Assembly (NCBI RefSeq): GCF_041248615.1 | Contig: NZ_CP158426.1 | DNA length: 64,000 bases | Direction: 5' to 3' (one strand) | Source of the DNA: Escherichia coli | GTDB lineage: Bacteria; Pseudomonadota; Gammaproteobacteria; Enterobacterales; Enterobacteriaceae | Shown here: positions 18,001 to 21,000 of the stretch, piece after piece | How positions within the stretch are numbered: the stretch's first letter is position 1 | Layout: every line of letters starts with the position of its first letter | Program-made: the position numbers

Positions 18001-21000
18001 TCGGTGTTCTGGTCATTTGTTGACACGCGTACATAGCCAATAAGCATGATCAATCCCCTGAATAAAAACCAGGGATGATGCCAGTTAGCTGTTACCTCTG
18101 CATTTTCTTAAACGTTGGTTTGGGAGAAGGTGCTCCAGCTATTGGTGTTCCGTTCTTCTGGCCGTCCGCTGCAATGCCAGATACCGTAATCGAAAGCTGG
18201 TCCGGCATGGTGTTTTTGAAGTTCAACGGCGCGAAATTCTCTGCCACTGATTACCCTGTGCTGGCGAAAGTGTTTCCTTCGCTGGTATTACCTGAAGCCC
18301 GCGGTGATTTCATTCGTATCTGGGATGACGGGCGAGGGGCGGACAGTGGACGAGCATTATTAAGCTGGCAGGCAGCAACATCTTTATCGCAATTTGGAGG
18401 TAATTATCCAGAGGGGTCCGGCCATTCGATTGCTAATCACGATGGAATATCAGCACACGAGCCGGGTTTCTCTCGATACCATTACACCAGTAATTCAGTG
18501 GGTGATGGTGTGAATTTTATAGCCGTCAGACCACGTAACATCGCATTTAACTTTCTGGTGAGGGCTAAATAATGAAACCTGTTTTTGATAAAAATGGGCT
18601 GGCTACAGTGCCGGGCGATATGCGTTGTTTTTATTATGATGCTGAAACATCTGAGTATACGGGCTGGTCTGATGAATATATTAATACTGGCGTAAGTATG
18701 CCCGCCTGTTCCACTGGAATTGACCCTGGCGAAAACATTCCGGGAAGAGTGGCAGTATTTACAGGTAAGGGATGGAGCCATGAAGAAGACCATCGCAATG
18801 AGACTGTTTACTCAATCGAAAATGGTGCTGCTGTTACAGTGGATTATATCGGTGCCATCAAAAACGGTTATGTCACGCTTTCACCGTTAACGCCATATGA
18901 TAAATGGGATGGTAAGAAATGGGTGACAGATACTGAGGCACAACACGGTGCCGCAGTAGAAGCGGCAGAAGCACAGCGCCAGTCACTGATTGATGCAGCA
19001 ATGGCTTCCATTAGTCTGATTCAGCTGAAATTACAGGCCGGACGTAAACTGACGCAGGCAGAAACAACCAGACTTAACGCTGTGCTGGATTACATTGACG
19101 CGGTGACGGCAACAGATACCAGCACCGCGCCGGATGTCATCTGGCCTGAACTGCCGGAGGCGTAGGCCATTCAATATCTGGAGCACTGGAGGTATCAACC
19201 AGTTCCAGTGCGTCCAGATAATCCAGCCACAAATTATATTGCGCCAGTTCCTCACCTTTCAGACGACCAATAGCCGCTTTACCAGGCCATTGTTTACTGT
19301 TCATATAATCGTTGGCCTGATTAATCAATTGCTGCTTCTCCAATTCGGCTGCAGCAATTTGTTCCTCATGTGTTGGTGGTGGAATTTCAGACCATGCAGG
19401 AAAACCATTTTCTCCAGCGATACGGATTTTTCCTTTCGGCGGTAATCCGGAAAACTCAATATACACTTGCTCATCAACTTCAACAGCATCATCTGGCCAT
19501 GAGTCAGCTTGAGTGTAATCCTCTTTCATCTCCAGCGGATAGAAAGAGTTTGTAGTCGCGGAATATATGTAATTCATTTTTCACTCCATATAGCTAAATT
19601 AACAGCCTAACGCTAAAAATGAAGCGCCGAGGCCAGGAGTACTGGCTCTGGATATAAATTTAACCGGGTCGGGACTAAAACCTGCACAGGCAATATAACC
19701 AACAGCCCCGCTATCTGGTGTGTAGTCTTGTGAGACCAAAACACGCAGACATCTGTTTGGAAATGCAATCGGGAAATGGGTTACTACATCCTGTGCAATG
19801 CCTGGTGCGCCGATTGAGCCCCACTGAAGAATAAAACCTGATGGTAATTTTTGATATCCAGTACCTGAAACAGAAAGCGTGAAGCTACCCATATCAGGTA
19901 TCTGATTCGCCCCTGTCCCTACATTCCTTTTAGCCGCTTCTCCCAAACCAAGGTATGTGAGAAGACCAGCTACATCCTTTCCACTCAAATTGGTAAGCGT
20001 ATTGTCCAGCGGTTGTTTACCTGACAGCGCATTAAGCATTGTCGTGGCAAAGTTCGGATCATTCCCCAGCGCCGCTGCCAGTTCGTTCAGCGTATCCAGT
20101 GCCGCAGGTGCAGAACCCACCATTGCTGCAATCGCCGATTTCACAAAAGCCGTGGTGGCAATCTGTGTATTGTTGACCGACTGTGCCGCAGTAGGTGCTG
20201 TTGGCGTTCCGGTAAGTGCCGGACTCGACAGTGGCGCTTTTAGTTCCAGCGCATTGTTAATGGTGGTGCTGAATTTGGGGTCATTGTTTATGGCCGCGGC
20301 TATTTCTTTCAGCGTGTCCAGCGTGGCTGGCGCACCATTAATAAGAGCCGTCAGTGCCGCCTGAACAAACGCGGTGGTCGCAAGTTGCGTGGTATTATTC
20401 CCCGCCGCTGGCGTTGGTGCTTTGGGGGTTCCGGTAAACGTCGGGCTGGCTTTTGGCGCGTACTGTGAATGCGGGTCCAGTGCGGCAAGATGTTTTGCCA
20501 TCAGATCATCCGCGTACACCTTCAGCTCCAGTGCCTTGTCATCCACATACTTGCGGGTTGCCAGCACTACAGCAGGGTCGATTTTCAGGGTGATATTGTC
20601 CGTGCTGCTGGTAATCAGCACCATGCGCACGGTCTGAGTGCGCCCGCTACCTTCAGCCAGTTGCGGCTTATAGCTTTCCGGGCAGTTGCCCACGGCAATC
20701 AATGCCCCTGACTCATCAAACAAGCCCACTTCACGTATCCACCAACCGCCCTCGTTTTCAGGGATCACCTGTTCGGCAATAATCTGACTGCTGTTCTGCG
20801 GGTCGATATAGAGCATATTCAGCGCAGCCCGGCGTTTCTCATTTACCAGTGCAGTCTGCTTTGAGTCTGGCGTTGGCAATGCTCCGCCGCCATCGCCCAC
20901 CGCCATATGGGTAATTTTTAGCGGCACACCGAGCGCGGCGGCGCTGGCAAGTTTCGCCGCGCCAATATCCGTCAGCAGGGTATAAAATTTTGTGCTCATG

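Follow-up and report, generated by a model that had tools for sequence, protein, structure and literature searches.

Two diverged tandem 74-residue modules in the putative tail fibre of a P2-like Escherichia coli prophage

In this study, we report that the putative H-type tail fibre encoded in a stretch of 64,000 nt of E. coli contig NZ_CP158426.1 (assembly GCF_041248615.1; this whole stretch is called the window below) carries two consecutive units of exactly 74 residues, here named A and B. The reading that we favor, to which we give a probability of about 0.75, is that the constant portion of a P2-type H protein here contains two old and diverged modules, which are kept by selection at the protein level and whose number changes occasionally, one unit at a time, at short tracts of 8-10 nt. 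It must be noted that two modules are an ordinary feature of tail fibres, that the practical value of the finding is modest and that the understanding of tail fibres is unchanged by it.

The gene and its tandem units

The gene was assigned to the H-type fibres of P2-like E. coli prophages on the basis of its domains, its position in the operon and its similarity to P2 gpH. The Pfam search placed PF12571 at aa 1-150 (E 3.9e-65) and PF21882 (Gp53-like_C) at aa 384-466, and the protein was 51.1% identical to P2 H over aa 1-354 (E 3e-72), with which it shares the PF12571 N-terminus. The ORFs of the window follow the order of the P2 tail operon (V, W, J, I, H, tail-fibre assembly protein, sheath), and the P2-type gene order was found in P2 itself and in three Pfam-annotated homologous loci (L001-L003). 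In the AlphaFold model of the full-length monomer, the pLDDT was about 60-87 in the N-terminal domain (aa 1-150) and 25-45 over aa 131-377, and the model can be interpreted at the terminal domains only. Foldseek against the PDB, which informs on the C-terminus and the N-terminus alone, matched the C-terminus of this model to the R1/R2 pyocin fibres and to gp53 of AP22. The features of the region are listed in Table 1.

Table 1. Features of the tail-fibre region, with positions in the window
Feature	Position	Strand	Basis
Putative H-type tail-fibre gene, orientation currently expressed	19599..20999	minus	466-aa ORF; PF12571 and PF21882; similarity to P2 H
N-terminal baseplate-attachment domain, aa 1-150	20550..20999	minus	PF12571 Phage_tail_fib, full length (1-150/150)
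Repeat unit A, aa 181-254	20238..20459	minus	Self-comparison; full-length 1-74 unit-HMM match per unit in close 466-aa homologues
Repeat unit B, aa 255-328	20016..20237	minus	Self-comparison; close to the single unit of P2 H
10-nt tract TTACCGGAAC, LTGT codons	20428..20437 (A); in register 20206-20215 (B)	minus	Longest exact A/B run
8-nt tract ACGCTGAA, DTL codons	20308..20315 (A); in register 20086-20093 (B)	minus	Exact in-register run
9-nt tract AATGCGCTG, NAL codons	20247..20255 (A); in register 20025-20033 (B)	minus	Exact in-register run
Right-hand inversion crossover site, inside H at the YLGLGE codons	19932..19963		Inverted repeat I1; breakpoint between 19937 and 19951
Tail-fibre assembly protein that goes with the C-terminus expressed at present	19137..19577	minus	PF02413 Caudo_TAP, E 2e-38
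Silent alternative cassette (alternative H C-terminus and its own assembly protein)	18075..19165	plus	ORFs; Pfam
Alternative H C-terminus	18075-18572	plus	ORF; weak Collar-domain match
Assembly protein of the alternative cassette	18572-19165	plus	ORF; Pfam
Left-hand inversion crossover site	18103..18134		Inverted repeat I1; breakpoint 18112-18129
Serine DNA invertase, Din/Cin/Gin-like	17481..18053	minus	PF00239 Resolvase, E 2e-53; PF02796 HTH_7

A preliminary description of this DNA had noted two consecutive units with a common motif in the H protein, and both were found as described, with the motif SPxFTGTPxAPT...NNTTQxATTAFV...APAxLDTLxExAAAxxNDPxFxTTxxNAL. The unit length of about 50-60 aa given there had to be revised, the measured period of A and B being exactly 74 aa (222 nt) without gaps; the location proposed (20040-20430) was right, with a slightly wider full extent (20016-20459). 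The self dot-plot that had been suggested as a check contained a diagonal at an offset of 222 and, when all self-offsets of the gene were scanned, 222 was the unique peak, with 138 matches against 89 for the runner-up. At the protein level, 44 of the 74 residues of A and B were identical (59%), and their BLOSUM62 local score was 225, compared with 37 ± 6.9 for 2000 composition-preserving shuffles (z = 27). As a DNA repeat the pair was weak, with 138 of 222 nt identical (62%), a value nevertheless above that of shuffles (57 ± 6.4; z = 12.5), and a repeat search of the gene recovered only fragments of 12-21 nt at the spacing of 222. The units are in frame, have a fixed period of 74 aa and are significantly similar, as expected of structural tandem repeats.

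The duplication that gave rise to A and B appears to be old. Their identity by codon position was 66, 82, and 38%, respectively, the longest exact in-register run common to both was 10 nt, and the 138 identical nucleotides were close to what the peptides alone predict when they are back-translated with the codon usage of the gene itself (132 ± 4.2; z = 1.5); the low third-position identity, the short run and this agreement all argue for an old event. So does the fact that A and B are each nearer to their P1-like and P2 counterparts than to one another, since A was 78% identical to unit 1 of the S protein of the P1-like SJ46, and B was 82% identical to unit 2 of the same protein and 80% to the unit of P2 H. 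Of the 44 residues that agree, only 18 use the same codon. A and B are saturated at synonymous sites, which suggests that the repeat is kept by selection on the protein and not by a recent duplication of DNA. With respect to unit number, P2 H, to which the P1 S and Mu S fibres are related, has one B-type unit (aa 252-325) and, ahead of it, an unrelated repeat of about 42 aa in two copies, whereas the window fibre has two units, and SJ46 S has, as the window fibre does, an A-like and a B-like unit as a pair.

Copy number and recombinant junctions

The comparison of copy number among related prophages, also advised in the preliminary description, revealed orthologous P2-type fibres with 1, 2, 3 or 4 units of exactly 74 aa. 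Unit number was scored with the unit HMM in the best 120 protein clusters, among which 115 had two units, one had a single unit, two had three, one (P0069) had four in tandem and one (P0001) had four unit matches that arise through a larger internal duplication. Every cluster of exactly 466 aa had two units (104/104); these clusters are 78-98% identical to the window protein, as are the 466-aa homologues used for the unit-HMM check given in Table 1. Among the matches listed in a protein search with a three-unit query, which missed its own source protein and is not informative on frequency, the 116 further clusters all had two units, so that in both searches together the two-unit state was present in 231 of 236 close clusters. 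In complete E. coli genomes, 920 of the 1314 matching records (~70%) covered at least 80% of the two-unit query, and the pattern of the one-unit allele was seen in 12 of 60 evenly spaced matching records (roughly 20%). The one-unit state was confirmed by translation in O157:H7 TW14359 and in IAL7250; the one-unit alleles of the TW14359 lineage, with an N-terminal domain only 67% identical to that of the window, could be ancestral instead of deletions. Alignment spans gave one unit for Salmonella phage RE2010 and two for Kp4848-2. Among alleles with 80-100% identity the number of units remains stable at two, and three- and four-unit alleles are rare. Whole units thus vary in number (1-4 in orthologues and up to 9-11 elsewhere, at a spacing of 74 aa) while the flanking domains are kept.

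To judge from their sequences, which are clean mosaics of A and B, the extra and missing units arose through recombination in register. The expansion and contraction by slippage or recombination anticipated in the preliminary description were borne out to this extent, but homology-driven slippage is not expected to be frequent, since the copies in the window are only 62% identical in DNA. In the three-unit allele L001, the middle unit follows unit 3 of the same allele as far as the 8-nt tract ACACTGAA, the equivalent of the DTL tract of the window; within this tract it switches once, from B to A, and it follows unit 1 thereafter, in agreement with 87 of 87 informative sites. In the one-unit allele L003, the change from A to B falls within the 9-nt tract AATGCGCTG, and in L002 the switch is at nt 87-90, with 70 of 75 sites consistent. 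Two switch tracts, ACGCTGAA and AATGCGCTG, are also found in the window's own A/B pair. The sole clearly recent deletion within the lineage of the window (P0120/L003) came from one metagenome contig. A DNA query with the whole three-unit sequence was confounded, as overlapping pieces on two-unit genes were joined to 100% coverage. With junction-specific queries of 121 nt (E ≤ 1e-35), the exact recombinant junctions of both three-unit alleles were present in 0 of 5,426 complete E. coli genomes, and therefore expansions are rare.

We propose that unequal recombination in register, or template switching, at the tracts of 8-10 nt in the LTGT, DTL and NAL codons would delete or duplicate exactly one unit of 222 nt in each event, giving fibres with 1, 2, 3 or 4 modules. 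Any of replication slippage, annealing independent of RecA and a phage recombinase could account for these events. Each module would then add a fixed length of trimeric shaft, and the copy number would set the distance between the baseplate and the receptor-binding tip. These clean mosaics suggest that in-register microhomology of 8-9 nt is enough to reshape a structural gene of a phage, which bears on the evolution of fibre modularity. In this regard, host-range duplications in gp37 of T4 reportedly occur between short conserved 'His-box' motifs, and they resemble the present case in that a small segment of the fibre is duplicated in tandem via very short motifs, as with the DTL and NAL tracts. 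The sequences are, however, unrelated, and the T4 duplications affect the distal adhesin region under laboratory host-range selection, whereas units of the window type would belong to the proximal constant shaft and their variants are natural alleles.

Possible role of the units

At E ≤ 1e-3, the unit profile matched 47,257 representative proteins. Other fibre-like proteins contain arrays of up to 9-11 full units, with exactly 74 aa as the commonest spacing, and half-units occur as independent repeats in up to 23 copies. The PHROGs families that contain the unit are annotated as tail fibre. For the units, searches of Pfam (E ≤ 10) and NCBIfam (E ≤ 1) gave only chance matches below threshold and no curated model. 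The unit resembles the fibre repeats curated in these databases in being a short sequence repeat of phage fibres, those families belonging to trimeric shafts, but differs from them in that it is catalogued only implicitly, within the whole-protein PHROGs families. The literature search yielded no specific earlier account of the 74-aa unit, nor of a varying number of its copies among P2-like fibres. A module so common merits a curated family model, given that the whole shaft at present goes undescribed in annotation pipelines.

The position of the units between the PF12571 attachment domain and the receptor-binding C-terminus fits a role as shaft or spacer. Each half-unit matched the sequences of trimeric fibre proteins in the solved virion structures 9D93, 9K09, and 9CUY; the helical half also matched in sequence FibU of 80alpha (6V8I), in a stretch that is absent from the modelled coordinates of that entry. 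The geometry of the shaft, the fold of the units and their effect on fibre length are inferred. A linked-trimer AlphaFold prediction (three di-units joined by Gly/Ser linkers of 60 residues, with a tripled alignment of 12 rows) had a mean pLDDT of 30 and the model was unusable. In both low-confidence models, monomer and linked trimer, the second half of every unit contained three short helices, an observation that was not relied on.

Another explanation, which we consider possible but doubtful, is that the unit is mainly a recombination linker, whose invariant motifs let unrelated phages swap C-termini or N-terminal domains and whose changes in copy number are a by-product. It is favored by the different N-terminal region that precedes the A-like/B-like pair in SJ46 S, by the higher conservation of the units (84-86%) than of the N-terminal domain (67%) when the window fibre is compared with those of TW14359 and IAL7250, and by the three-unit allele P0100, which combines a unit 1 of the TW14359-lineage type with an N-terminus of the window type. 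Horizontal exchange of fibre segments among P2, P1, and Mu is also established. Nevertheless, the linker alone leaves unexplained the arrays of 9-11 units as well as the conservation of the protein together with its saturated synonymous sites, which points to a structural and not a DNA-level constraint. Both explanations can hold together, and the conserved motifs of the shaft modules probably serve also as crossover points for swaps of fibre parts between phages.

A more ambitious form of the shaft-module reading, which we regard as speculative and rather unlikely, is that the unit is an uncatalogued and very widespread fibre-shaft domain whose copy number acts as an adjustable ruler, retuning the reach of the tip to the thickness of the O-antigen or capsule through rare, microhomology-mediated gain or loss of one unit. 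In that case, P2-like phages would gain a second axis of host-range adaptation that does not depend on the invertible tip. In practical terms, the borders of the units and the series of 1-4 copies found in nature offer junctions for engineering the fibre length of P2 or tailocins and for grafting receptor-binding tips.

It is improbable that the units are instead functional domains that, for example, nucleate trimers, dock the assembly chaperone or bind carbohydrates as secondary sites. In favor of such domains, many positions of the unit (P6, T9, G10, P12, P15, T16, V32, P44, L47, T49, L50, D60, and K74) show no variation at all among diverse fibres, but a freely variable copy number and half-units repeated up to 23 times are what structural repeats typically show, and the receptor-binding and chaperone-dependent parts of these fibres are C-terminal, in view of the match to the pyocin-fibre fold and of the assembly gene that follows each C-terminal cassette.

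A fast contingency locus, in which frequent slippage or recombination would alter fibre length within a population in the manner of phase variation, is very improbable. Related prophages do differ in copy number, and the perfect match of the middle unit of L001 to its own flanking units makes that allele look very recent. Against this, the near-identical DNA of such loci was not found in A and B, and efficient RecA recombination needs roughly 25 nt or more, so that a longest run of 10 nt is far below this need. Copy number did not differ among the very close relatives compared (the 104 clusters of 466 aa and the 116 further clusters), as it would at a slippage-prone contingency locus, and the prevalence of the two-unit state, both in the protein clusters and in the E. 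coli records, and the absence of the three-unit junctions from the complete E. coli genomes searched also count against it. Finally, a similarity that is only compositional, without true duplication, has practically no probability left, because, despite a unit region rich in Ala (23%), Thr (15.5%), Leu (10%), and Pro (9%) and the lack of any repeat reported by Tandem Repeats Finder at a minimum score of 30, for which the units are too diverged, the self-comparison had already refuted it (27 SD above shuffles, a gap-free exact period and a unique offset) and units with these same limits are seen again in thousands of proteins.

The adjacent invertible segment

The constant part of H ends at the right-hand crossover site, about 55 nt downstream of unit B. 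A serine invertase, inverted crossover sites and two opposed C-terminal cassettes were found there, as in the Din-type switches Mu G/Gin, P1 C/Cin, and e14 P/Pin, with the invertase adjoining a segment of 1.84 kb and each cassette carrying its own assembly protein in the style of the Din family. The difference from that family lies in the repeat, which is outside the invertible segment. P2 H lacks an invertible C-terminus and has a different receptor-binding end, whereas the window fibre has an invertible tip in the style of Mu G and P1 C. In E. coli IAL7250, the constant part of H carries the alternative C-terminus, as it also does in NZ_LT599825.1 in its flipped state. With respect to the latter, segment 18112-19951 is inverted and the sequence is otherwise 100% identical, and both orientations were thus observed.

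The H gene and its tandem repeat

The P2-type tail-fibre gene H of the prophage encodes a protein whose first 150 residues were a full-length match in Pfam to PF12571 (phage tail-collar fibre, N-terminal) and whose last 83 matched PF21882 (Gp53-like_C). Over aa 1-354 its identity with protein H of P2 is 51%, and the ORFs of the window are arranged as in P2 (V, W, J, I, H, tail-fibre assembly protein and sheath), an order likewise present in homologous loci with Pfam annotation. Therefore, the gene had been correctly labelled as H protein, or tail fibre, in the preliminary description. 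In the same region, an ORF of 304 aa (23471-24385, plus strand) lies opposite to the tail genes, and its beginning overlaps the longest ORF for baseplate gene V (22845-23501) at the 5' end of the latter. This ORF, which had no match in Pfam or PADLOC, may be cargo ("moron") inside the tail operon.

Translation of H revealed two adjoining units, A and B, with a period of exactly 74 aa (222 nt). Their gap-free alignment had 44 identical residues out of 74 and a BLOSUM62 score of 225, against 37 ± 6.9 in 2000 shuffles, while their DNA was identical at 138 of 222 positions, against 57 ± 6.4 in shuffles. When H was compared with itself, a DNA diagonal was present at offset 222, which was unique among all self-offsets (138 matches; runner-up, 89). 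This lone peak and the shuffle scores reject a merely compositional similarity and bear out the two consecutive units proposed earlier. Their length, given as 50-60 aa, had been underestimated, and the region assigned to them (20040-20430) was right but slightly narrower than the full extent of 20016-20459. The annotated features are provided in the table.

Positions of the features of the H gene and the adjacent invertible segment
Feature	Position	Strand	Remarks
H-type tail-fibre ORF	19599-20999	minus	466 aa; ORF calling
Unit A	aa 181-254	minus	translation; adjoins unit B
Unit B	aa 255-328	minus	translation; adjoins unit A
ACACTGAA tract (DTL), A / B	20308-20315 / 20086-20093	minus	
AATGCGCTG tract (NAL), A / B	20247-20255 / 20025-20033	minus	
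10-nt tract common to A / B	20428-20437 / 20206-20215	minus	
Right crossover site	19932-19963		YLGLGE codons, ~55 nt downstream of unit B; inverted repeat
Left crossover site	18103-18134		inverted repeat
Serine invertase	17481-18053	minus	adjoins segment; Pfam
Tail-fibre assembly gene	18572-19165	plus	convergent with minus-strand gene
Tail-fibre assembly gene	19137-19577	minus	convergent with plus-strand gene

At the DNA level the repeat is faint. Identity between A and B was 66, 82 and 38% at the three codon positions, the codon was shared at only 18 of the 44 conserved residues, the longest in-register common run was 10 nt, and total nucleotide identity matched that expected from back-translation of both peptides (z = 1.5); Tandem Repeats Finder reported no repeat. 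Each unit is nearer to its counterparts in other phage families than to the other unit, given that A is 78% identical to unit 1 of S, the fibre protein of P1-like SJ46, and B is 82% identical to unit 2 of S and 80% to the single unit of P2 H, against 59% between A and B. Taken together, these sequence comparisons show that the duplication is ancient and maintained at the protein level.

Copy number and recombinant junctions

The proposed comparison among related prophages yielded alleles of one, two, three or four units. Two units were present in 115 of the 120 closest protein clusters and in all 116 further clusters. The other five closest clusters comprised one with a single unit (P0120), two with three (P0100, and P0102 with its 14 member sequences), one with four in tandem (P0069, Enterobacter roggenkampii) and P0001, in which a larger internal duplication accounts for four unit matches. 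P0001 is a 768-aa protein of Salmonella Typhi annotated as "Gifsy-2 prophage tail fiber protein"; its duplication of ~264 aa takes in the whole of unit B together with most of A and some of the Collar-type C-terminus, and has its junction at an NNTT motif. This duplication arose either by aberrant recombination or through faulty sequence assembly. H of P2 has a single unit and S of SJ46 a pair; alignment span indicated one in Salmonella phage RE2010 and two in Klebsiella phage Kp4848-2, and more distant P2-type fibres of the representative library (P0136, P0161, P0206) have three or four. Among 5,426 complete E. coli genomes, 1314 records were matched by a 570-nt probe that covers A and B, and at least 80% of the probe was covered in 920 of these records. 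Among 60 evenly spaced sampled records, 42 were two-unit-like (a single match over at least 85% of the probe length) and 12 had the pattern of a one-unit allele, which was confirmed by translation in strains O157:H7 TW14359 and IAL7250.

The variant units combine segments of A and B as mosaics. In the complete chromosome encoding P0100, the middle unit matches unit 3 of the same allele as far as nt 144 and unit 1 of that allele starting at nt 153, with agreement at 87/87 informative sites and the switch within the 8-nt tract ACACTGAA (DTL codons). In the P0102 locus the switch lies at nt 87-90 (ATTAFV codons; 70/75 sites consistent). The single unit of P0120, a protein 96% identical to that of the window across the aligned part, is A-type as far as nt 204 and, beginning at nt 214, B-type, switching within AATGCGCTG (NAL codons). 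Both ACACTGAA and AATGCGCTG are also common to A and B of the window gene (table). Such mosaics are expected if units are exchanged unequally in register or if the template is switched at short microhomology, and by either route whole units could be added or removed. RecA needs far longer homology than tracts of 8-10 nt; therefore, we infer that units are probably gained and lost independently of RecA or by the action of a phage annealing recombinase. It is mildly notable that the microhomology at clean recombinant junctions is so short.

The one- to four-unit relatives and the mosaic units uphold the earlier suggestion that copy number varies through recombination. These events are rare: neither of the two three-unit junctions turned up in the 5,426 complete E. 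coli genomes. This result, the weak A/B DNA identity and the two-unit state of most clusters and records reject a fast slippage hotspot.

The 74-aa module in other fibres

No Pfam or NCBIfam model covers the 74-aa unit, although dozens of PHROGs tail-fibre families include it; so common a unit without any curated family is mildly notable. A profile built from five units and searched against 1.84 billion representative proteins matched 47,257 at E <= 1e-3 and 14,441 at E <= 1e-10. In the best 150 of the 47,257 matches, the longest arrays had 9-11 full units, and units were most commonly spaced exactly 74 aa from start to start. The first half of the unit (SPxFTGxPxAPT...NxTQxATTAFV; ~35-45 aa) also repeats by itself, in up to ~23 copies, in P0123, P0126, P0130 and other proteins of 1000-2100 aa, and half-units are interspersed among full units in, for example, P0124, P0129 and P0135. 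Therefore, the unit is a composite of two separable sub-modules. The second half was found alone in tail proteins of mycobacteriophage, Gordonia, cyanophage and Caulobacter phages. Each half is matched by sequence in fibre proteins of solved virion structures (9D93, "tail collar fibers gp4"; 9K09, the trimeric fibre gp24 of cyanopodophage A4; 9CUY/9MJN, the phiTE long tail fibre); in 6V8I the unit-matching stretch is absent from the deposited model. Upstream of its 74-aa unit, P2 H (aa 170-250) has two copies of another ~42-aa repeat (KGxxQLSSATNSTSETLAATPKAVK...), so shafts of this family combine different kinds of module.

The H repeat is a typical example of a type of tail-fibre repeat that has long been known, and the fibre is best read as a standard modular one, in which an attachment domain is followed by a shaft of 74-aa modules, then a short linker and finally an exchangeable tip. 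We infer this shaft role, and with it an effect on length, so that the shaft should become longer or shorter by whole modules. The conserved unit motifs are probably also crossover points for exchange between phage families, because the units are more conserved across lineages than the N-terminal domain (84-86% vs 67%) and one three-unit allele (P0100) joins the N-terminus of one lineage to the unit type of another.

The invertible tip

Units A and B sit in the constant part of H. The crossover sites bound a 1.84-kb segment with two cassettes in opposite orientations, both of which encode a C-terminal tip and an assembly protein of their own. Together with the invertase, the sites and the segment form a complete invertible tail-fibre switch in the style of Mu G and P1 C (17481-19963). 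The expressed tip is similar to the fibre ends of R1/R2 pyocins and to AP22 gp53. Relative to E. coli NRZ14408 (NZ_LT599825.1), segment 18112-19951 is inverted at 99.95% identity (one base different), with both flanks, including the constant part of H, 100% identical. Therefore, the switch has flipped in nature and both states exist. In that chromosome (3476618-3483187), H is annotated as two pseudogene fragments, one labelled "integrase", which looks like an artefact of the flipped orientation and not real decay. The 3' ends of the two assembly genes share 29 nt (19137-19165), and their common C-terminal LDYxDA motif gives rise to an 18-nt inverted repeat (19084-19101 / 19210-19227).
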